NCBI GenBank assembly: GCA_029862885.1
Contig: JAOTWM010000012.1
Coordinates: forward strand, 1 to 30,346
Length of the DNA: 30,346 nucleotides
Origin: Gammaproteobacteria bacterium
Lineage (GTDB): Bacteria; Pseudomonadota; Gammaproteobacteria; Arenicellales; JAOTWM01
Direction: 5' to 3'
Both the position numbers and the translations under genes were made by a program. The notes beneath the pieces are model-generated. The model had not been told where the DNA came from and made no database searches. It worked only from the letters and a program-made list of their open reading frames with translations. Position 1 is the first letter of the stretch. Every line of letters starts with the position of its first letter. Below are positions 2,715 to 27,026 of the stretch, in pieces.

Positions 2715-3109
2715 CGCCTCTCCAAAAAAAGTTGGAGAGGATATCAAATAGATTGAAAAACAATGCGTTACAAATCATTCCGGCTCATCGTGAACACCGA
2801 TTCCGGAAAAAACGGAAAAGTGTTCACGATGGACCGGAATCACTGTTCACACAAAACCGGAATCGGTGTTCACAATAAACCAGAATCACTGTTCACGCTC
2901 GGCCGGAATATGCACTAACTGTGGTAGGCATACACTTGACGTTTGCTGCCTCAAACCGAATGTCCGCAAAGTATTCCAGCCACATTTGCAAATTTCGACA
3001 TCCACATACTGCACGCGCGGTTTCCCACCGCCGACCAGGGCTTCTGATCCTGGCGCCAGAGTGTTCAGGTGTGTGGGCCCGGGATCTAACAAAGACGCTG
3101 ATATAGAAG

Positions 3110-3400
3110 AGAATGGCCCGGAATGAACCCATGAGACGCGCAACAGCTTCCGCCATTAGAGAATCCAACATAAGCTTGTCGTAAGCGCCAAATTCACCCC
3201 GAATTCGAGCGCCGTAAAAAGTGTGCTTTGTTTGTAGGGCCATTCAGGTAAGCAGCCGGGCGCTTACTCGTATTACGCAGGTTCTCCTCAACACCTCCGG
3301 CGAGGATTTCCAACCACGGTTTATCGAATAAATTCTTAAGTAAAACGACACCGTCTCTCTGGTAGCTGGCAATTTGATTGTCTGTAAGCAAAACGCTCAT
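3110..3400 (-). pseudogene. Phytanoyl-CoA dioxygenase (PhyH)-family gene remnant, frameshifted near 3200-3243 and losing homology by about 3110.
   Basis: N-terminus MSVLLTDNQIASYQRDGVVLLKNLFDKPWLEILAGG is PhyH-like. The continuation (EFGAYDKLMLDSLMAEAVARLMGS) is in a different frame. A GAGG Shine-Dalgarno precedes the ATG at 3400. Confidence 0.4.
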
Positions 3401-3820
3401 AGGAGCCTCGATCGATGCTTACTTTGATGCAGGCGCTGCAAAGTCCTGCGCCGTTACTGCAGATGGTTAGATAGGGAATATGATGCACCTGTTTTCTAAA
3501 GGTTGACTTGATTCAGAAAGTTTCATGGATTGAGAATATCCACATCGCGAAAACCATCCGGACATCGCGTACAGGAAGTAGCTCTCCTGGACAAAAGTAC
3601 AACGATGTGTTGTGACGCCACTCGACGTTTATTTCGACCAAATTAACCGAAGCAAGGGGAAGAACCAGTTCCATAGGAGCGAGAAGCTCTAGCAGAACTC
3701 GACTGAGCGGGTGACTGTTGATTCAGTTTGTCCGCTATACGTTTGATGCCGCGCGTTGAAGTATCTTAACTTCGAAAGTCGGGCGTGGCTGGATAGCTGG
3801 CAAGTCGAACCCGTATTCCC

Positions 3821-4938: not shown

Positions 4939-5238
4939 TTACTCGTTGAAAAGTATCAAAAATTGGCCACCGAAATCAAACGTCACTGTTGCGCTATCTT
5001 TACTGAATATATTCATACTAATTATTTTTCCTTCGCCAGATCCATAAGTGGAATGGTCAGGGCTAACCCAATCATCGATCTCCTTGTCTATCGGAATGCA
5101 AAGCAGCTCCTGCTGACCTTCCTCGTTTTTCCAATATCCCACCATAGTGGCAATGCCAAGCCAAAACACTTTTTCGAGCCTTTCACGATCTTTAGTCATA
5201 TAGCCTTCGAAATAATCAAAAATCGTTTCCTTTATCAA
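4939..5238 (-). CDS. Hypothetical small protein, possibly NTF2/SnoaL-like, in an AT-rich islet. It uses a TTG start and has no clear RBS.
   Basis: The 99-aa ORF has protein-like composition (DYFEGYMTKDRERLEKVFWLG...). It sits in a low-GC stretch (4720-5440) and may be decayed. Confidence 0.3.
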   Translation of the reverse strand: MIKETIFDYFEGYMTKDRERLEKVFWLGIATMVGYWKNEEGQQELLCIPIDKEIDDWVSPDHSTYGSGEGKIISMNIFSKDSATVTFDFGGQFLILFNE

Positions 5239-5436: not shown

Positions 5437-6060
5437 ATGCAGATACTCTATGGGGCCAAGGGCGCGGGTTCGGTTGCTCCTCAAGCCTTGCTAACCCATC
5501 TAGAAGTGCCATTCGAGCTAAAGCTGATTAGCTTTGACGCAAACGAGCACCAGTCAGAGGCATTTCTTGCCGTCAACCCCCGGGGGCAGATCCCTGTGCT
5601 GGTTTTGGACGACAAAAGCGTCCTGACTGAATCGCTTGCCATCATGCTTCATGTCGCCGACAGCCACCTGTCCTCTGCATTGATTCCAGCACCGGGCAGT
5701 GCCGAGCGAGCCCAAGTGTATCGCTGGATGTCATTTACCGCGACGAATGTGTACGAGGGGCTCTTGCGTCTTCTATACCCAGATATGTACACGACCAACA
5801 GCGACCTGTCCAAAGTCGTAGAGTCGGCTGATCAGTATTTGAATTCAGCTTTTGGAATTCTCAATCAAGCGCTAAGTAAGGGGCCATGGTTGGTTGGAGG
5901 GCGTACGGGCGTCACCGATATCTATCTTGCGATGCTGCTGACTTGGTACCCTGATCAGCAGAGGCTATACGAAGTCTACACGAATCTGCAGCCGTCCTTG
6001 AAACAGACGTTGGCGCTCGAAGGTGTGACAAGGGTGTTTGAGGAAAATGAGTTGATCTAA
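5437..6060 (+). CDS. Glutathione S-transferase family protein
   Basis: Thioredoxin-like N-domain (QIPVLVLDD...ESLAIMLHV) and a helical C-domain. Length is 207 aa. Confidence 0.8.
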   Translation: MQILYGAKGAGSVAPQALLTHLEVPFELKLISFDANEHQSEAFLAVNPRGQIPVLVLDDKSVLTESLAIMLHVADSHLSSALIPAPGSAERAQVYRWMSFTATNVYEGLLRLLYPDMYTTNSDLSKVVESADQYLNSAFGILNQALSKGPWLVGGRTGVTDIYLAMLLTWYPDQQRLYEVYTNLQPSLKQTLALEGVTRVFEENELI

Positions 6061-6259: not shown

Positions 6260-6745
6260 TTGAACTTTGGCTCAGCCTATTCGTCACCTGACGACAAAAG
6301 CTTCATCGCGAAGTATCGTGCCTGCTGCCATTGCGGCGCGGTGCGGTACGAAGTTCGCGCCGATCCGGTCGACGCCAAGATTTGTCATTGTAGCGATTGC
6401 CAGATATTGCACGGCGCGCCCATGCAGTGGGCCGCAATTTTCCACAAAGAGGATGTCAGGTTCGCAACTGGGGCTGAGCATTTGCGATTCTATAACAGCG
6501 TCCTCAACCGCCATGAAAGACTCGTGCCCTGTAAGGTGGCCTGCGCATTGTGCGGTACGCTAATCGCCGATGAAGGGCGAAATATGTGGCTGGCCTTTCC
6601 CACGCTTTTCGATTTCGGCGCGCCGCCACAGGTGCCCGAAGCGTTCAGGCCGACCTGTCACCTCTTCTACGGCATGCGGGTGATGGATATCGTCGATGAG
6701 TTGCCGAAATGGTCTGGCCACAAAGATAAATCGAGGCGACTTTGA
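6260..6745 (+). CDS. GFA-family (glutathione-dependent formaldehyde-activating / CENP-V-like) protein
   Basis: CHCGAVRYEV...CHCSDCQ...C zinc-binding pattern of the GFA domain. TTG start with an AAGGAG Shine-Dalgarno 9 nt upstream. Confidence 0.8.
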   Translation: MNFGSAYSSPDDKSFIAKYRACCHCGAVRYEVRADPVDAKICHCSDCQILHGAPMQWAAIFHKEDVRFATGAEHLRFYNSVLNRHERLVPCKVACALCGTLIADEGRNMWLAFPTLFDFGAPPQVPEAFRPTCHLFYGMRVMDIVDELPKWSGHKDKSRRL

Positions 6746-8232: not shown

Positions 8233-9555
8233 ATGACTCCCGAGACTCATTTCGCTGAAAACGATGGCGTCAGCATCGCGTATCAAGTTTTCGGTGACGG
8301 CTCACAGGACCTGATATTCATACCGGGATGGTTATCGAATCTTGACATATTGTGGGAAGAGCCGAGGGTGGCTCGTTTCCTTCTGTCACTGGCGCGAATT
8401 TTTAGGGTTACTGTTATTGATAGACGCGGAACTGGGCTTTCCGATCGTGTCGCGCCCCCGACTCTAGAAGTTCAGATGGGCGATGTGACGGCGGTGATGG
8501 ATGCCGCAGGTTCCGAACGCGCAGCATTTCTCGGTAATTCCGAAGGCGGGAGTATGTGTGCGTTGTTCGCGGCGACCCATCCGGATCGAACAACGGCTCT
8601 AATTACGGTTGGTGGATATGCTAAATGGATAAAGTCTGACGATTATCCGTATGGAACGAAACCGAGTGAAGCTGAGCAGTGGTTTGAACAAGTTGAAAAC
8701 GAGTGGGGTGGTCCCATCGCAATCGACTTTATCTCACCGAGTTTGGCAAACGATGAAAAACACCGACACTGGTTGGCTAAATTTTACCGATCGAGTGCAA
8801 GCAAGGCGAACGCCATTGCAATGCTAAGAATGGGTGCGGATATTGACCTTCGAGCAATATTGCCGACCATCAATGTTCCAAGCTTGGTGCTTCAAGCCAA
8901 AGCCGACCTTACCAACTCATTGGATTCGGGTCGCGACCTCGCAAGCCGAATCCCAAATGCGAAACTTGTCGAAATGGAATGCAGAGATCACGTGCTATGG
9001 GGGGACTGCAGTGAAGTGATTATTGGTGAGATACAGAACTTTCTCGGCGAAAAACAGACGATTTCGGTCACTGATCGAGCATTAGCCACCGTATTGTTCA
9101 CTGACATAGTCGATTCAACACAACTTGCGAACGATTTGGGCGATGAAAAATGGAGCGATCTACTTGAGGGACATAATGAAGCGGTCAGAAGGCAGCTTGA
9201 AATATTCCGTGGCAACGAGGTAAAGACTACCGGTGACGGCTTTCATGCAACATTTGACGGGCCCGCTCGAGCAATCCAATGTGCAGCCTCGATACGAGAA
9301 GCGACACGTCAATTAGGTTTAAGTCTCCGAATTGGCATACATACTGGAGAATGTGAGATTCGTGGAGAATCACTTGAGGGGGTGGCGATTCACTTGGCGG
9401 CACGTGTATCAGGGATGGCTTCTGCCGGGGAAATTGTTGTGTCAAGAACAGTTAAGGACCTTGTTGCTGGGTCAGGAATTGAGTTTGAAGACTTTGGTGT
9501 TCATGCCCTTAAGGGAATCTCTGGTGAACAACAACTATTCAAGGTGGTGGCGTAG
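8233..9555 (+). CDS. Alpha/beta-hydrolase-fold domain fused to a class III adenylate/guanylate cyclase catalytic domain (LipJ/Rv1900c-type architecture).
   Basis: N-terminal half resembles alpha/beta hydrolases. C-terminal VLFTDIVDSTQLANDLGD...TTGDGFHATF...RIGIHTGE are cyclase CHD motifs. The start codon is uncertain; the frame is open back to 8011. Confidence 0.75.
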   Translation: MTPETHFAENDGVSIAYQVFGDGSQDLIFIPGWLSNLDILWEEPRVARFLLSLARIFRVTVIDRRGTGLSDRVAPPTLEVQMGDVTAVMDAAGSERAAFLGNSEGGSMCALFAATHPDRTTALITVGGYAKWIKSDDYPYGTKPSEAEQWFEQVENEWGGPIAIDFISPSLANDEKHRHWLAKFYRSSASKANAIAMLRMGADIDLRAILPTINVPSLVLQAKADLTNSLDSGRDLASRIPNAKLVEMECRDHVLWGDCSEVIIGEIQNFLGEKQTISVTDRALATVLFTDIVDSTQLANDLGDEKWSDLLEGHNEAVRRQLEIFRGNEVKTTGDGFHATFDGPARAIQCAASIREATRQLGLSLRIGIHTGECEIRGESLEGVAIHLAARVSGMASAGEIVVSRTVKDLVAGSGIEFEDFGVHALKGISGEQQLFKVVA

Positions 9556-9639: not shown

Positions 9640-10320
9640 ATGGCAACAATAAGACCCATGATCAAGGTTATCACCAACAAATACGCGTCCTCACCCTACA
9701 GTCGGAAAGGCATCATTGTGCTGGAGGAGAAGGGCCTACCCTATGAGCAGGAAAACATCGACCCGGATTTCCTGCCGGACGGGTTCGAGTCGATGAACCC
9801 CAACCTGCGGGCGTCCTTGTTGATCGATCAGGGCCAGATGATATTTGAGTCGGACAACATCGTAGACTATCTCTTGCGGACGTATCCGGGGGAGCGGTCA
9901 GCGGATGCGCCGGACCCGCCCCTGACCGAAACCATGACACGCCCGGATCACCACATCCACGATTCTATGATCCTGGTTACGATTGAAACTGTCCTGAATA
10001 GCGCGAATAACATATCATTTTTTGCCACTGGCGGAATCGACCCCGCGAAGATCGAGCCCTATGGGTGGATATGGGAACGGGACAAGGTCCGCATCGATTC
10101 CTGCATGACTTGGCTGGACCAGCCAGCAATACCCGAGGGATTTGCTCCTGGAGTTTTTTCCATCATGGATCTAAAAATGATGTGCGCGTTCCGGTGTTTA
10201 ACCCGATGCGCGAATGATGACTGGAACCCCGACTGGAGCAAATATCGAAATCTCGATTCGATTTATGCGTTTTATCGGGACCGACCCTCCATTGTGAAAA
10301 CTGACCCTGGGCTAGGATAG
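9640..10320 (+). CDS. GST N-terminal-domain (thioredoxin-like) family protein
   Basis: SPYSRKG...NPNLRASLLIDQGQMIFESDNIVDYL fits the GST_N fold. The C-terminal half is atypical. An alternative start lies at 9658. Confidence 0.6.
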   Translation: MATIRPMIKVITNKYASSPYSRKGIIVLEEKGLPYEQENIDPDFLPDGFESMNPNLRASLLIDQGQMIFESDNIVDYLLRTYPGERSADAPDPPLTETMTRPDHHIHDSMILVTIETVLNSANNISFFATGGIDPAKIEPYGWIWERDKVRIDSCMTWLDQPAIPEGFAPGVFSIMDLKMMCAFRCLTRCANDDWNPDWSKYRNLDSIYAFYRDRPSIVKTDPGLG

Positions 10321-12869: not shown

Positions 12870-13583
12870 TTAACAGCAAGCGCAAGCGACCGATCGCTCG
12901 GTCGGACCGCAGCACGCCTGTCGAGCTTGGCCTTGCTCCGGGTGACCCAGGTAGGTCTCGTCGGACAGGTAGAAGTTGGTGAACTTCTCCACAAAATCTT
13001 CTGCGACGGATTTCTTCGGCAGACCTGTGGCGAGTACATTCTGCTGCCACGCTTTGACCTTCGGGAACTCGGCCAAGAAGTCATAACCAGAGTGCTGCTG
13101 AATGATGGCCGCACGGTGCAGCAACGGCAACCATGCAATATCAACCATGCCAACCTTATCCCCCCTGAAGAATCGACCGTCACTCAGTCTCTTTTCGGCG
13201 GTTGCGAATGCCTCATTCAGCTTGGCGCTGCGCTCCACAAACGTGACTTGATCGGGGCTCCTCTGCGTCGAGCACTGGACAAGGTAGTTCTTTGTGGCCA
13301 GGTATGACCACGCCCGCTCTCGAGCCTTCTCGACGGGATCAGCAGGGAACAGCGGATCTCCGGCAGTCTCCTCGATGTACTCTACGATGGCATCGGATTC
13401 GTGAAGCGCGCGACCATCGTCGGTTATCAGGACCGGTACCTGGCCCAGCGGTGATATCTCAAGGAACCAATCGGGCTTGTCGCTGATATCGATATCCTCG
13501 ACCTCGTAGGGGACGTTCTTGGCCTCAAGCAGGGCCGTGATCCGCTGGACGAAAGGGCAAATTCCAGAGCTGACGATTTTCAT
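12870..13583 (-). CDS. Glutathione S-transferase (CPF, Grx-like type) with a Cys-rich C-terminal tail ...QACCGPTERSVACACC
   Basis: AGGAG Shine-Dalgarno 7 nt upstream. N-terminal ICPFVQR...GQVPVL...ESDAIVEYI GST_N fold. Six cysteines lie in the last 16 residues. Confidence 0.8.
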   Translation of the reverse strand: MKIVSSGICPFVQRITALLEAKNVPYEVEDIDISDKPDWFLEISPLGQVPVLITDDGRALHESDAIVEYIEETAGDPLFPADPVEKARERAWSYLATKNYLVQCSTQRSPDQVTFVERSAKLNEAFATAEKRLSDGRFFRGDKVGMVDIAWLPLLHRAAIIQQHSGYDFLAEFPKVKAWQQNVLATGLPKKSVAEDFVEKFTNFYLSDETYLGHPEQGQARQACCGPTERSVACACC

Positions 13584-21704: not shown

Positions 21705-21741
21705 ATCTCATACTTGACATGAGATTTTGAATCTATACAAT
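21705..21741 (+). promoter_or_regulatory. Near-consensus sigma70 promoter TTGACA-16-TACAAT, overlapped by a 7-bp inverted repeat (ATCTCAT/ATGAGAT) that could be an operator.
   Basis: TTGACA at 21714-21719 and TACAAT at 21736-21741. The IR arms at 21705-21711 and 21719-21725 straddle the -35 box. Confidence 0.5.
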
Positions 21742-21951
21742 ACCGTGCCCCATGAGATACCAGAACTGCAAACAAGTCGTCATATCAAGCGCGCGGCCGT
21801 GCCACGCGTTGACGGATCGTGTCGCCCCGAGACTCGCGCAAGTCCCCGGTGTGGTACTCGATACGTCGAATCTACGAGATGGCGTGATGTAACCTGTTGG
21901 CGAATTTATCCGCTGATAGGTGCGTGAGCGTTGCCTACCAGCGGGCATAGA

Positions 21952-21983
21952 CCCTGGTTGGCGAGCGCTACCAGGGTTTTTTT
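21952..21983 (+). terminator. Rho-independent terminator: hairpin CCCTGGT-loop-ACCAGGG followed by TTTTTTT
   Basis: A 7-bp GC-rich stem with an 11-nt loop and a T7 run, read directly. It closes a roughly 235-nt unit that begins at the promoter above. Confidence 0.6.
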
Positions 21984-22130
21984 GTGTCCGGAGATTTGGT
22001 CCGGGTGCAATGACAGAGTTTGATGCGAGTCCGCGGAGGTTCTGCGGTATAGGTTCGGAATGCCTATCCGGTGCGCTGCTGCTAATCATCGCAATGCGTA
22101 TGCCGAGCCGTTCGCAGCGTATCGAACACC

Positions 22131-22204
22131 AGCGAGATAGCTCAGCTAGGTAGAGCAACCGACTCATAATCGGTCCGTCGCAGGTTCAACTCCTGCTCTC
22201 AATT
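22131..22204 (+). tRNA. tRNA-Met(CAT)-like sequence. The D, anticodon and T arms are canonical, but the 3' acceptor strand pairs at only 5 of 7 positions. Probable pseudo-tRNA or att-site-modified tRNA.
   Basis: TAGCTCAGCTAGGTAGAGC D-arm. Anticodon stem ACCGA/TCGGT with loop CTCATAA. T-arm GCAGG TTCAACT CCTGC. Acceptor 5' AGCGAGA versus 3' TCTCAAT, with no encoded CCA. Confidence 0.55.
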
Positions 22205-22634
22205 GCCTTTGAAGCAATCTTGGAAATGGCGAAAGCCTGAATTTGTAAGTGAAGGCCCCCGTGGTTGGCATTGTTTACGGTTGTATTCGAACGCAATGTG
22301 AATCACAGCGGCTGCCGGGCCGGATAACGCTAGTTGCGCCGGCTGGCGGCGTACACGACAGCATTATGTAGCGCGCAAATTCGAATTGCGCTCACTACAG
22401 GAAGTGTCGCTACGTATCGTTCTCGGGTGCGCTTAAGTCGAGCGCCGGCGGTATTTCGCGCGGTGGTCGTGGGGCCGGATCTAAATTAGCCAATGGCAAA
22501 TACGGACGTGAAAAATGAAATACTAGCCGAGTCGGTATTGGCGGCCTGTAACGGGAACCGAGTAAGAAATCGTCATGCGGCCGGTGGATTGTTTCCGCTG
22601 GATTAATCAAGCAACCTTAATAGGGATTAGGACA

Positions 22635-23780
22635 ATGTTTGGAATTAAGCGAGTGGTGGTTGCGCGACATGAGCGTGGCCTATTGATCAAAAATCGGAAC
22701 GTACAGGAAGTGGTGCAGCCGGGAAACTATTGGGTTTTCGGGCCACGGACTCGGATCGAGACTTATGAGATCACCGTGCCGGAATTCGAACACGAATTAA
22801 CGGCATTTATCGTAAAGGATCGACAGCACCCGGCGCGGCGTTATTTCGACGTCGTTGAAATCGGGGACCGGCAAGTGGGCTTGGTCTATAAGGACAACAA
22901 ACTGGCCGATGTGTTATCGCCGGGTAGCCGCCGGCTGTACTGGAAAGGAATCGTCGATGTGCGCGTGGAAATCATCGATATCGATGAAGACTACACCGTG
23001 CCGAAGCCGGTCGTGGCTTTGCTGGCGCGCCAGCGGCCGGGCGTGTTTCCGGCCCAAGTCAAGGATTTCATCTGCGTAGCGGAAGTGGCAGATAAGTTTG
23101 TCGGCATGCTAATCGTAGATGGAGAGCTGGTGAAGACCCTGCAGCCGGGTTTGCATGCATACTGGAAGTTCAACCGGCGCATCGGTGTCGAGCAAATCGA
23201 TTTACGCTTGCAGAGCATGGAAGTGTCGGGTCAGGAAATGCTCACCAAAGACAAGGTAAGTCTGCGTGTGAACTTGTCGGCAACCTACCAGGTGGCCGAT
23301 CCGGTCAAGGCACGTTCGACGTTTCACAACTTCGTTGAGCAGTTGTACCGCGAGTTGCAGTTTGCCGTGCGCCAGGCGATTGCAGCACGTACGCTGGATG
23401 CTCTTTTGGGAAACAAGGATGAGCTTGACCGCAGCGTCTGCGCAACCGTCCGCGCCAAGGTCGGCGCCCATGGTTTGGAAGTACACGGCGTTGGCATCAA
23501 GGATGTGATCCTGCCGGGCGACATGAAGACCATCCTCAACCAAGTGGTTGAGGCGGAGAAGGTCGCGCAGGCGAACGTGATCAAGCGACGTGAAGAGACC
23601 GCGGCAACGCGGTCGGCGCTCAACACGGCGCGTCTTATGGACGAGAACCCGACCTTGTTTCGTCTGAAGGAACTCGAAGTGCTCGAGAAGGTGACGGAGA
23701 AGGTCGACCGGCTCACTGTATTCGGTGGGCTCGAAGGAGTCATGCAAGACGTCGTGAAGATCAACGTGCGTTCCGATTGA
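22635..23780 (+). CDS. SPFH/Band-7 (stomatin-prohibitin-flotillin-HflK/C) domain protein
   Basis: Core ...LTKDKVSLRVNLSATYQV.DP.KA... followed by ...GVGIKDVILPGDMKTILNQVVEAEK.AQANVIKRREE coiled-coil region. The tracker's start at 22575 is possible. Confidence 0.8.
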   Translation: MFGIKRVVVARHERGLLIKNRNVQEVVQPGNYWVFGPRTRIETYEITVPEFEHELTAFIVKDRQHPARRYFDVVEIGDRQVGLVYKDNKLADVLSPGSRRLYWKGIVDVRVEIIDIDEDYTVPKPVVALLARQRPGVFPAQVKDFICVAEVADKFVGMLIVDGELVKTLQPGLHAYWKFNRRIGVEQIDLRLQSMEVSGQEMLTKDKVSLRVNLSATYQVADPVKARSTFHNFVEQLYRELQFAVRQAIAARTLDALLGNKDELDRSVCATVRAKVGAHGLEVHGVGIKDVILPGDMKTILNQVVEAEKVAQANVIKRREETAATRSALNTARLMDENPTLFRLKELEVLEKVTEKVDRLTVFGGLEGVMQDVVKINVRSD

Positions 23781-23864
23781 TAGGCGCACATGATCGGCAA
23801 CGATTTTAATTTGGAAGGTCCGGGCAATAGGGCCCGGGCCGCCCCACGTAACCTGAATAGCATA

Positions 23865-24839
23865 ATGAAACCGCAATTGGCTCGCGAGATCATTGCTTGT
23901 CTGCCCAAAGGTCGAACGCATTTTCGATACTTTAAGGATCGCTATGCGTTCTATTTGCTGGCGTACGCCACCGGCCGTGGCCGCTCAATTTCCGAACTTA
24001 AGCTTTCACCGGTTCGACGATTGCTCGATAAACCCAGCGTAAAACAACTTATTGCCCGTCACGGCGATAATGTAATAAATCGATCTGACTTACTAAACTC
24101 GTGGATTGAACCGTCCGAACCGTTTGTTTTGGGATTGGGTATCTGGAACGGCAGTTCAAAGCATTGGCGCAATGCTCAAATATCGCGGCGCGGGGCAAAC
24201 TTGGTTTTGCAGCTCAACTTCACTAATCAGCATCAGGCCGAGTATTACCGTTTAGTGAAACCCCGGTCGACTGGTTATCTAAATGGATACGGCCATCCTG
24301 TGTTACGGGCGGGGCCGGGAAAATTTCACCGCGACACCTTGGCTTGGGCACGAATCGACCTCGATTTCGGCGCCGACGAAGCATTAATCGAGGAGATCCA
24401 GTCCGACTGGATTCGCTATGCTGATTGGGATTTACGCCCCGTGTTGAAGTGTCGGTATCGGGCGCGCCAATGTGGGTTGTGCAAGAATATTGATGGCAAG
24501 AAGCGCGACATCGCTCACTATTTGGAGCACACCCTCAAGCCGTACCGGGAAATATGGATCGAGGCGATGCTCGCCGCCACCATCGAATTCATAGCGGACG
24601 AATTGGGAATCGGGGCGATCTACTACCATACCCAGCGTTCGGGAGCCGCCCTCAAAAATATCCATTCTGGTTACCGCCAGCCGCCTCGGTCGCTATATTC
24701 CGATCTACCCCGCAAATTTTGCTTCCAATCCACAAATCGTCCGCCGGAATTTCTAGGGGCCGGTCGACACGGCGCCGGCAAGGCCAATAAATATCCTTGG
24801 TATTTATTGAGAGTCGCTGCAGCAAATACCACTAGCTAA
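23865..24839 (+). CDS. Conserved hypothetical protein coupled to the SPFH gene. No recognizable family; possibly a nuclease-like D..D/EEIQ motif.
   Basis: Long ORF with GC-typical codon use starting 10 nt after the SPFH stop. N-terminus may be at 23790 or 23865. Confidence 0.55.
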   Translation: MKPQLAREIIACLPKGRTHFRYFKDRYAFYLLAYATGRGRSISELKLSPVRRLLDKPSVKQLIARHGDNVINRSDLLNSWIEPSEPFVLGLGIWNGSSKHWRNAQISRRGANLVLQLNFTNQHQAEYYRLVKPRSTGYLNGYGHPVLRAGPGKFHRDTLAWARIDLDFGADEALIEEIQSDWIRYADWDLRPVLKCRYRARQCGLCKNIDGKKRDIAHYLEHTLKPYREIWIEAMLAATIEFIADELGIGAIYYHTQRSGAALKNIHSGYRQPPRSLYSDLPRKFCFQSTNRPPEFLGAGRHGAGKANKYPWYLLRVAAANTTS

Positions 24840-24858: not shown

Positions 24859-25515
24859 TTAAAGTTGCCGGCCGAGCCACCCGTCGCGCTGTTTAGTGGA
24901 TTTGCGATACAGCGCGGTAAATTCGGAGTCTATGGCCTGCTTGACTGCACCTAACCGCAACACGGCACTACTCCATGCGTCCAATTTCGGGTGGTCGCCA
25001 GGGTCTAAGAGCTGTCGTGCGGGTTTGAGAATGTCGAGCCGCGCAAATAAAGGTGCGAAGCACGCATCGACGAGGCCGGGTTCGGGTCCGTCGAAAAACA
25101 CGGCATCCGATTTTTTGTCCTCGAGGTAGTCAAACTTCTCGTCGAGATCGTACGCGGCGTCGTCGAACTCGGATTCGTCCGTTGCTGTAACGGCCCCAGA
25201 CAGATCCGCCAATACCGCCGCGCCGTACGCAATCATTGCTCGATGTCTGGCTCGTTGTAGCGGCTCCTCGGGCAATAGCGAATCCGACGCGATGTCGTTC
25301 AGGTACTCGTTGATGACTGCAGATTCAAAAACAATATGCTGGTCATCTATGCGCAGGATCGGGACCCGACCAAGCGGCGACACGTCCTCGAACCAGGGCG
25401 GTGGGTTAGTGATATCGATTATGGTTAGGCGATACGCAATGTCCTTAAGTCGCAACACGACTTCCGATGACTGCACGAACGGACAGAGCGCGATGCTGAT
25501 TAATTCCAAGTCCAT
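24859..25515 (-). CDS. Glutathione S-transferase (CPF, Grx-like type)
   Basis: N-terminal LCPFVQSSEVVL...GRVPIL...ESAVINEYL GST_N fold. Lies 35 bp downstream of the AAA gene on the same strand. Confidence 0.8.
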   Translation of the reverse strand: MDLELISIALCPFVQSSEVVLRLKDIAYRLTIIDITNPPPWFEDVSPLGRVPILRIDDQHIVFESAVINEYLNDIASDSLLPEEPLQRARHRAMIAYGAAVLADLSGAVTATDESEFDDAAYDLDEKFDYLEDKKSDAVFFDGPEPGLVDACFAPLFARLDILKPARQLLDPGDHPKLDAWSSAVLRLGAVKQAIDSEFTALYRKSTKQRDGWLGRQL

Positions 25516-25550: not shown

Positions 25551-27026
25551 TCAATGTGCCGGCACGGTGCGCCCGGAGGCCCACGATCGCAACGCGTTCA
25601 CCTGCTCTGCCATCACCACCGAAAGCGGTTGTGTGTCTTCGACTTCCTTTAGCACCAGTGCCGTATTCAGTGCCTCGTCCCGGGCGTGGGCGCGATACAG
25701 CGCGGAGACGACCGCTTGCTCCAATTCCGCACCGGAAAATCCATCACTCGCTTTGGCCAGCATGTCGAGATCGAACTTATCGGCATCGAGCGCGCGATTG
25801 CCAAGATGGATCTTCAGAATCAGCGCGCGGGTTTCGCGATCCGGTAAATCCACGAAAAATATTTCATCGAAGCGACCTTTGCGCACCAATTCCGGTGGCA
25901 ACAGCGAAATTTCATTGGCCGTCGCAACAATAAACACCGCGGATTTCTTTTCTGCCATCCAGGTCAACAGCGTTGCCAGGATCCGCCGTGCAGGGCCGTC
26001 GTCTTCTTGTCCCGCGATGCCTTTCTCGATTTCATCGATCCATAATATACACGGCGCCATGGTGTCCGCACTCTTCAGCGCTTCGCGCACATTGCGCTCG
26101 CTCTGGCCGTAGAACTTATTGAATATCGCTCCCATGTCCAAGCGCAACAGCGGTGCTCCGAATGCCCCGGCTACGGCGCGTGCCGCGAGGCTCTTGCCGC
26201 AGCCTTGCACTCCCAATAATAAGATGCCTTTGGGCGTATCCAATTGCGGATTACTGGATTTGCCCATAAATATATCGCGCCGGTTGGTAAGCCATTCCTT
26301 AAGTGCGTTTAAGCCACCGACCTCGGCGAATCGGCTCGTTTCATACTCAAACGTCAGGGTATTGTCACGATCGAGCAGATCGTACTTCGCTTTCATCACC
26401 CCGGGCAGGTCGGTGTGGGAGATCGCGCCGTCGTTAAAGATCGCCTTTCGAACCAGTCGCTGCGCGTCGCCGTGGGTAAGGCCCGAGAGGTTTTTAACCA
26501 ACAGCTTGGTGGCCTGCCGGTCCGCCTTGACACGCTGATTATTCTTCCCGGCGGCCCATTCATTGGCCGTGTCCACCACCATGCTTTTTAGCTCTTCCGG
26601 TGTCGGCAATCCGAGACCGAATTCAGCAGTGTAGTGCCTTAGTTCGCCGGGGATTTCGAGTTCGTGGCTAAGCAACACGATGCAGCGCTCGACGCTGGAA
26701 TGCTTTATAGCGATGTCTTTCAGCAGTCGGGTATGGACGGGCTCAGCAAGGAAATGATGATAATCCAGCAATACATAAATGCCGGGCTGGCTCTCTGCCT
26801 TAATGTGCTCCAATACGTCCTTAGGCTCGGCATGTTGGGCTTCGCCATCTATGTCATAGCGTGCGAAACGTAGACCTTCGGTTACGGACCACTTGAATAA
26901 GGGTTTGCCGAGACTTTCCGCGATTTCAATGAGTAGCGTTAGCACGCGTTGTTCTTCGTGCGATTCCACCACTACGATCGGGATCTTGGATTTGAGAATC
27001 AATGCCAAGTCGTGTCGGTTGTCCAT
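25551..27026 (-). CDS. AAA+ ATPase (classical clade) with an N-terminal domain of roughly 250 aa and unknown function
   Basis: Walker A GVQGCGKS, Walker B ILWIDEIE, sensor-1 and Arg-finger block VATANEISLLPPELVRKGRFDEIFFVDLPD. The start codon is 5 nt after the AceK stop. Confidence 0.85.
   Translation of the reverse strand: MDNRHDLALILKSKIPIVVVESHEEQRVLTLLIEIAESLGKPLFKWSVTEGLRFARYDIDGEAQHAEPKDVLEHIKAESQPGIYVLLDYHHFLAEPVHTRLLKDIAIKHSSVERCIVLLSHELEIPGELRHYTAEFGLGLPTPEELKSMVVDTANEWAAGKNNQRVKADRQATKLLVKNLSGLTHGDAQRLVRKAIFNDGAISHTDLPGVMKAKYDLLDRDNTLTFEYETSRFAEVGGLNALKEWLTNRRDIFMGKSSNPQLDTPKGILLLGVQGCGKSLAARAVAGAFGAPLLRLDMGAIFNKFYGQSERNVREALKSADTMAPCILWIDEIEKGIAGQEDDGPARRILATLLTWMAEKKSAVFIVATANEISLLPPELVRKGRFDEIFFVDLPDRETRALILKIHLGNRALDADKFDLDMLAKASDGFSGAELEQAVVSALYRAHARDEALNTALVLKEVEDTQPLSVVMAEQVNALRSWASGRTVPAH

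Follow-up and report, generated by a model that had tools for sequence, protein, structure and literature searches.

What is encoded at positions 22131-22204 of contig JAOTWM010000012.1, where the genome of an uncultured gammaproteobacterium (assembly GCA_029862885.1) carries what reads as a methionine tRNA gene with an aberrant acceptor end? The window analysed here is the whole metagenome contig, 30,346 nucleotides (nt) long. A preliminary description of the sequence had proposed either an integrase attachment (att) junction or a pseudo-tRNA. We find that the element belongs to a family of structured RNAs located 300-570 nt upstream of slipin/SPFH/Band-7 genes, on the same strand. It is most probably the cloverleaf core of a Band-7-associated tRNA-like non-coding RNA, of the class named b7a-tRNA.

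Structure and conservation of the cloverleaf

ARAGORN identifies the element as tRNA-Met(cat) on the forward strand, the sole tRNA of the window, and Rfam matches the same positions with its tRNA family RF00005 at 52.5 bits (gathering score, 29). The tRNA-Met(CAT)-like character given in the preliminary description is borne out by these two calls. Reading of the sequence also agrees with the regular D, anticodon and T arms described there. The anticodon arm is ACCGA/CTCATAA/TCGGT, with the CAU triplet in a 7-nt loop, the T arm is GCAGG/TTCAACT/CCTGC, and the nucleotides engaged in tertiary contacts are all in place (U8, A14, G18G19, G15:C48 and T54T55C56). Because its anticodon stem is ACCGA/UCGGU, the element is not an initiator tRNA; initiators are distinguished by a C1xA72 mismatch and by three G-C pairs at the base of this stem.

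The acceptor end is different. The 5' strand AGCGAGA faces the 3' strand TCTCAAT, so that pairs 4:69 to 7:66 (GAGA/UCUC) and 1:72 (A-U) are formed and G2:A71 and C3:A70 are mismatched. Pairs 2:71 and 3:70 are those that Rfam flags as non-standard. Position 73 is a T (U73) instead of A73, and the following GCC runs into a conserved hairpin, hairpin A. Two mismatched acceptor pairs out of seven and a missing CCA had both been reported, and rightly, as had the view that this is not an ordinary tRNA-Met gene.

The element is located 430 nt upstream of the Band-7 gene, on the same strand, and the same arrangement is observed in at least 17 other loci. Loci with SPFH homologues came from metagenomes (L023-L050, 36-73% identity) and were also found via a protein database. 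In nearly every locus with enough upstream DNA read, ARAGORN or Rfam detects a tRNA-like element 300-570 nt 5' of the SPFH gene and in the same orientation. The one clear exception is L028, where about 700 nt upstream of the Band-7 gene contain no tRNA-like element. The anticodon is not conserved among these homologous elements: CAT, GAT, TGT, ATA, GTG and GTT are found, in loops of 5-7 nt. In the metagenomes, the element of L023 has a 6-nt anticodon loop and that of L024 is a 72-nt 'Leu-caa' with a 5-nt loop; other ARAGORN labels are Ile-gat, His, Asn, a 74-nt 'Leu-tag', 'Phe-aaa' and Arg-ccg. The protein-database loci include 'Thr-tgt' (L057), 'Ile-gat' (L061), a 75-nt 'Tyr-ata' (L062), 'Met-cat' (L053) and a match seen by Rfam only (L051). 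The label '???' also occurs, and elements labelled 'Leu' have no long variable arm. In L031 (5565-5713), the anticodon arm is extended by a 25-nt insertion, and this locus also has a group II intron D1-D4 domain (172.8 bits) farther downstream, at 8913-9134.

Ten copies were aligned with MAFFT (alignment A3), and a covariance model, R1, was built from this alignment. It reveals a cloverleaf followed by three hairpins: A, which is anticodon-like, B, with a GNRA loop, and C, which resembles a second T arm. In this alignment 96.9% of the cells are paired, compared with 85.2% in shuffles and 36-47% in slid controls, and 14 pairs show compensatory changes. In a second alignment of 15 copies (A7), fitted to model R1 and therefore inflated in its pairing percentage, 99.1% of the cells are paired, with compensatory changes in 20 of the 30 pairs. 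Both alignments give covariation support to all four cloverleaf arms. A further hairpin lies upstream of the cloverleaf; in its own alignment of nine loci (A9), 92% of the cells are paired (slid controls, 25-54%) and four of the seven pairs are compensatory. The minimum free energy fold of the window RNA taken as a single sequence is uninformative (z = -0.33). R1 gives a single match in the window, at 22131-22255 (115.9 bits), and it separates the Band-7-adjacent elements (62-133 bits) from the ordinary tRNAs of the same loci (at most 58.6 bits).

The imperfect acceptor is shared by the family. None of 13 family members forms all seven acceptor pairs, compared with 78 of 89 ordinary tRNAs in the same loci; both top pairs are formed in two of the 13, against 85 of the 89. 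CCA is encoded in 84 of these 89 ordinary tRNAs. In several family members an ACCA sequence is sequestered inside hairpin A. L051, whose Band-7 protein is 64% identical and whose genomic context is different, has the same 4-bp GAGA/UCUC helix with an unpaired top, then ACCA.

Compensatory changes maintain the cloverleaf together with one hairpin on its 5' side and as many as three on its 3' side. The anticodon varies in both triplet and loop length, pairing at the top of the acceptor is not preserved, and the nucleotides that would form the CCA end are taken up by the hairpin that follows. The RNA thus retains the L-shape of a tRNA but not the features required for charging and decoding. The coordinates of the module are collected in Table 1.

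Table 1 Features of the tRNA-like element, its leader and its protein partners in the window
Feature	Position	Strand	Evidence and remarks
Sigma-70-like promoter, TTGACA-16-TACAAT	21714-21741	+	11 of 12 matches; L023 has TTGACA-17-TAGAAT
Small open reading frame, 46 amino acids, almost leaderless	21752-21892	+	Same ATG and TAA positions in L023, with a 15-nt in-frame insertion
Intrinsic terminator, possibly an attenuator; stem CCCTGGT...ACCAGGG and T7; ends 148 nt before the cloverleaf	21951-21983	+	Fold z = -3.76; stem and T-run kept in L016, L018 and L023
5' hairpin GGUAUAGG / UUCGGAAUG / CCUAUCC, about 60 nt upstream of the cloverleaf, in a conserved block of about 100 nt	22046-22069	+	Alignment A9
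tRNA-like cloverleaf, core of the Band-7-associated tRNA-like RNA; CAU 'anticodon'; 4-bp GAGA/UCUC acceptor helix, top unpaired	22131-22204	+	ARAGORN; Rfam tRNA, 52.5 bits; model R1; covariation
3' extension hairpin A, UUGC/GCAA stem, 7-nt anticodon-like loop CUUUGAA, starting right after the acceptor 3' strand	22203-22217	+	4 of 4 pairs compensatory, 15 sequences
3' extension hairpin B, GGC-GAAA-GCC, GNRA-type tetraloop	22228-22237	+	Kept in 15 of 15 members; 2 of 3 pairs compensatory
Site of the second T-arm-like hairpin of relatives (GUGG-UUCGAAU-CCAC), degenerate in the window and L016	22238-22255	+	Helix 7 of A3 unpaired only in these two; gapped in A7
Tiny upstream open reading frame ATG-AAA-TAC-TAG (MKY*), Band-7 leader, about 110 nt before the Band-7 start	22515-22526	+	Same aligned position in relatives
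Slipin/SPFH/Band-7 protein, 381 amino acids, protein partner of the RNA	22635-23780	+	Pfam Band_7, 2e-30
Recurrent third component, 324 amino acids, GNAT-like fold	23865-24839	+	No Pfam match

A class of tRNA-resembling non-coding RNAs, b7a-tRNA, was predicted by Burroughs and Aravind in 2016 (NAR 44:8525), as cited in a later paper (10.1101/312249). According to the later paper, pairs of b7a-tRNA and Band-7 were predicted in 2016 as parts of bacterial RNA-repair systems; it proposes a functional redundancy with YrlA and describes the class as experimentally unvalidated as of 2018. As in that class, the element adjoins a Band-7/SPFH gene and strongly resembles an authentic tRNA; in relatives, it is also next to RtcB. 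The present copy differs in two respects: its contig has no RtcB or other repair enzyme, and it lacks the second T-arm hairpin of most relatives. The window holds a reduced module, composed of the RNA, the Band-7 protein and a GNAT-fold protein, without RtcB, HNH, nucleotidyltransferase, tRNA array or second T-arm hairpin.

A 144-amino-acid open reading frame (ORF) lies opposite the cloverleaf, at 21733-22167 on the reverse strand. It is an annotated gene in the L016 record and has no family match; it is probably spurious.

Relic, decoding tRNA or integration junction

Several points weigh against the assignment to b7a-tRNA. The RNA is a predicted one, and its match to the class definition is drawn from the citing paper (10.1101/312249). 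Pfam reveals no RtcB, RtcA, RtcR, nucleotidyltransferase or HNH protein in the 30-kb contig, and tblastn no RtcB; RtcB may be encoded elsewhere in this genome. Other points come from close relatives. In L016, a 96% relative, the element has the UCUCAAUU end of the window copy, and its cloverleaf differs by four substitutions, one of which breaks pair 27:43 in L016. The cloverleaves of the window and L016 are 94.6% identical, which is similar to the flanking non-coding DNA (96.6% and 91.0%) and no higher than the neighbouring intergenic DNA at 96.6%, and the second T-arm hairpin is degenerate or lost in both. Finally, in a sister lineage seen in six contigs (L017-L022, from a relative with 87% protein identity), both the cloverleaf and the Band-7 gene have been deleted, as has most of the GNAT-like gene.

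In these six contigs, a zinc-ribbon gene is followed by about 570 bp and then by genes for a glutathione S-transferase (GST), an AAA protein and AceK; there is no tRNA and no SPFH gene. BLAST homology to the window stops at 22105, 25 nt 5' of the tRNA, returns for 64 nt at 23862-23925, at the N-terminus of the 324-amino-acid protein gene, and resumes from 24872. The 64-nt remnant indicates that a deletion in L017-L022, and not an insertion in the window, would account for the difference. In L018 the scar occupies positions 4987-5173 (it is also present in L017 and L019-L022) and consists of the equivalent of 22105, about 9 nt, the 64-nt remnant of the first 21 codons of the GNAT-like gene, about 114 nt, and the GST gene.

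The same observations would suit a reading in which the element belongs to this RNA family but the present copy is an inactive relic, without function, of a module that is decaying in the lineage. Helix 7, the second T arm, is gone from the window and from L016, a stem has been broken in L016, the cloverleaf evolves no slower than its flanks, the contig is devoid of RtcB and the sister lineage has deleted most of the module. We nevertheless consider this unlikely. No damage is seen in the cloverleaf, its tertiary-contact nucleotides, hairpins A and B or the 5' hairpin, and the Band-7 and GNAT-like ORFs are intact as well. Differences between the window and L016 in the Band-7 coding sequence number 12, 6 and 30 at the first, second and third codon positions; because third-position changes are in excess, the Band-7 protein is maintained, under purifying selection. 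Helix 7 was lost before the window and L016 split, and the remaining RNA has been kept since. Distant members vary as well: hairpin A is absent in L039 and L029, and there is no second T arm in L042 and L044. For the RNA, the window-L016 comparison has too little power to judge maintenance. The term pseudo-tRNA used in the preliminary description is apt only in the sense of a non-decoding tRNA: since the fold is kept by compensatory changes across the family, the element is not just a gene in decay.

Could the element decode? A functional elongator tRNA-Met, or a lysidine-modified tRNA-Ile2, would have to tolerate the two acceptor mismatches or have them repaired, for example through 5' editing by a Thg1-like enzyme. 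The cloverleaf is regular, the 7-nt loop CUCAUAA has U33 and A37, and a CAU or GAU triplet is common to several close relatives. However, position 73 is U and not A, no CCA is present, and the next nucleotides form a conserved hairpin; close homologues have anticodon loops of 5 nt (L024) or 6 nt (L023), or other triplets. In addition, the linkage to Band-7 is found in nearly every locus read, and array-bearing loci already have the isoacceptor that the element duplicates. We regard a decoding role as very improbable.

The att junction, in which a genomic island would have integrated at the 3' end of an authentic tRNA-Met gene, overwriting its final nucleotides, is the least probable of the readings and is contradicted by the evidence. 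As at the attL and attR sites of tRNA genes, the abnormality is at the 3' end of a tRNA-like gene, with the departure from a perfect acceptor limited to positions 70-73, and the downstream genes vary from one genome to another, being different in some relatives. Unlike at such sites, repeat and recombinase are both absent, the empty site lacks an intact tRNA gene, and the abnormality is conserved in an RNA family. A repeat search with up to three mismatches allowed found the tRNA 3' segment only once in the 30.3-kb contig, which is the whole record; a distant repeat is possible beyond the contig. The statement in the preliminary description that the window has no integrase holds for tyrosine and serine recombinases, none of which was found by Pfam scans of all ORFs of at least 100 amino acids; a DDE transposase with an rve domain (IS21 IstA/IstB) is present 19 kb away and is not a site-specific integrase. 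The relatives with the empty site (L017-L022) keep no intact tRNA gene. Because their homology to the window breaks 25 nt before the 5' end of the tRNA, the tRNA-like element is inside the variable segment and is not its target. Searched against representative genomes of 185,579 species, a set without the source species, a 21-mer spanning the T arm and UCUC matched only tRNA-SeC and unrelated genes, and no tRNA-Met. L016 has the identical UCUCAAUU end and the distant L051 has the same 4-bp acceptor; as an imperfect acceptor is a trait of the RNA family, the acceptor mismatches are no recombination scar. Integration is not supported.

Protein partners and genomic neighbourhoods

The Band-7 protein has its true start at 22635 and more than 6500 homologues, which NCBI names 'slipin family protein'. 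PADLOC, PHROGs and NCBIfam gave nothing specific for this SPFH protein or for its 324-amino-acid partner. In some Band-7 homologues, the N-terminal beta-rich domain (residues 1-190) is repeated in tandem two or three times, as in L033 (329-2326), P0123 (590 amino acids) and P0150 (553 amino acids); these repeats might suggest a vault-like reading. In Pseudomonas aeruginosa, PA4582 lies in the rtc operon, and one database source names a 60% homologue of the window's Band-7 protein after PA4582. Searches of viral contigs gave no close relative and, with a profile, only one distant relative, so that the module is not mainly viral; the phage collection gave only a partial match, at 25%.

At least 11 related loci have RtcB no more than about 3 kb from the Band-7 gene; other common neighbours are HNH proteins, nucleotidyltransferases, a metallophosphatase and arrays of 18-24 tRNAs. 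In Citrobacter freundii (L055, NZ_CP151862), the slipin gene and rtcR point away from each other, and a nucleotidyltransferase gene comes after slipin. This enterobacterial operon of slipin and nucleotidyltransferase beside rtcR is observed in L055 (6683-6822) and in L054 (E. coli STEC639). Its leader contains a sigma-54-like TGGCAC-N5-TGGCA and a lone T-arm-like hairpin, GUGGGUUCGAUUCCCA; in these two loci, it contains no cloverleaf and no R1 match.

Arrays of 18-24 tRNA genes immediately precede the element and its Band-7 gene, in most cases accompanied by HNH and RtcB, in L053 (2249-7645), L029 (1267-5430), L061 (1676-5636) and L062 (864-5634). The array of L053 includes a GOLLD RNA (RF02032, 154.8 bits) at 3096-3581. 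In the array-bearing loci, the element is set about 0.9-2.2 kb apart from the array and duplicates an isoacceptor already present. An article that does not mention Band-7 (PMC8421152) describes long tRNA arrays that have HNH and rtcB as neighbours and are induced under translational stress. With their upstream arrays, HNH and RtcB, L029, L053, L061 and L062 resemble these, whereas the window has a single element, no array and no CCA. The family elements differ from array tRNAs by their imperfect acceptor, the usual lack of CCA, their extra hairpins and their R1 scores (at least 62 bits against at most 58.6 bits). The repeat motif of the Anabaena L-array shows no fit by eye.

The pair also resembles YrlA and the Y RNAs with Rsr (Ro60), encoded in rsr-yrlBA-rtcBA operons (PMC4201824, PMC7790460): in both cases, a tRNA-mimicking non-coding RNA and a scaffold-type protein are linked to RtcB/RtcR repair operons. 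In contrast, the present locus has no Ro/TROVE protein and no Ro-binding stem, and its mimic is a complete colinear cloverleaf, whereas in YrlA the mimic is one domain of a Y RNA. The Pfam results for the window include no TROVE domain, and no Rfam family other than tRNA is matched at E values up to 10.

In the window, the element is preceded by genes for a FrhB-like protein, a DAO/GCV_T protein and a zinc-ribbon membrane protein. It is followed by the Band-7 and 324-amino-acid protein genes and then, on the other strand, by GST, AAA and AceK genes. The AAA ATPase (25551-27026, reverse strand), which is beside AceK, matches the IetA models of PADLOC at 2e-25 and, below cutoff, the NCBIfam IteA anti-phage ATPase. 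It is 91% conserved in relatives without the module. Four glutathione S-transferase paralogues and one GFA (glutathione-dependent formaldehyde-activating) protein are encoded at 5437-6060, 6260-6745, 9640-10320, 12870-13583 and 24859-25515. An IS21-family element occupies 400-2747 on the reverse strand, with IstB (IstB_IS21, 8e-72) and IstA (rve and Mu-transposase C-terminal domains).

The leader region and a possible role

A terminator about 150 nt upstream of the element had been noted, and is borne out by the sequence (fold z = -3.76, Table 1); it was missed by a consensus scanner because its loop exceeds 8 nt. The accompanying statement that no credible promoter is present needs amendment: a strong sigma-70-like site exists at 21714-21741, yet it lies 5' of the terminator at 21951-21983. 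By eye, no sequence 5' of the cloverleaf fits a sigma-54 promoter of the kind seen in Citrobacter. Between the promoter and the terminator is the 46-amino-acid ORF, in which both differences between the window and L016 are synonymous third-position changes; its ATG is ATA in L018. It could encode a leader peptide or be part of a small RNA. A hairpin at 21913-21941 separates this ORF from the terminator, and promoter, ORF, hairpin and terminator form a conserved unit (21714-21983) that resembles either an attenuator with a leader peptide or a small RNA.

Just 5' of the cloverleaf, GCGTAT is directly repeated at 22096-22101 and 22117-22122, 21 nt apart. The repeat is inside a GTATACAGAAC-like motif conserved in nine loci, a candidate operator or -10 region. 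Between the two copies of the repeat begins the deletion of L018. Further downstream, the tiny ORF of the Band-7 leader occupies the same aligned position in several loci, with different peptides: MKY* in L016, MKN* in L023, MRNR* in L024, MRKT* in L025 and MKT* in L051. In those loci, it is followed by a conserved GUCGGU...CCGAGUAAGAAAUCG.

The b7a-tRNA-like RNA would be transcribed with the Band-7 mRNA or just ahead of it, likely from the promoter at 21714 and by reading through the terminator at 21951-21983, and may be trimmed by tRNA-processing enzymes. When tRNA or RNA is damaged, it would mimic a tRNA in concert with an oligomeric Band-7 scaffold and, here, the GNAT-fold protein. It could then assist repair enzymes such as RtcB, as their cofactor or platform, or divert tRNA-targeting nucleases as a decoy. 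Such an action would parallel that of the Ro60 (Rsr)/YrlA pair of rsr-yrlBA-rtcBA operons.

A bolder version of this proposal, which we put forward only tentatively, is that the cloverleaf is the core of a larger, undescribed RNA of about 230 nt, made of the approximately 100-nt 5' block with its covarying hairpin, the cloverleaf, the anticodon-like hairpin, the GNRA hairpin and the second T arm. This RNA would reside in a particle with the Band-7 oligomer and the GNAT-fold protein, a component not recognised before. The leader ORF and terminator (21752-21983) and the three-codon upstream ORF might sense stalled translation and so switch it on. The islands with tRNA arrays, RtcB, HNH and GOLLD, and the minimal module, might then be versions of one translation-damage response.

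For genome annotation, tRNA finders will label such elements tRNA-Met, Ile, Thr, Tyr and so on, which will inflate tRNA counts, and island finders may take them for att sites. In bacterial RNA repair, the b7a-tRNA/Band-7 pair is the predicted counterpart of the Ro/Y-RNA pair. To this picture we add a covariance model that separates the elements from true tRNAs, the unpaired acceptor top and buried 3' end as family traits, extra conserved hairpins, a recurrent partner with a GNAT fold, and a module that can exist without RtcB. These results provide concrete handles for experiments on the role of a non-decoding tRNA mimic.
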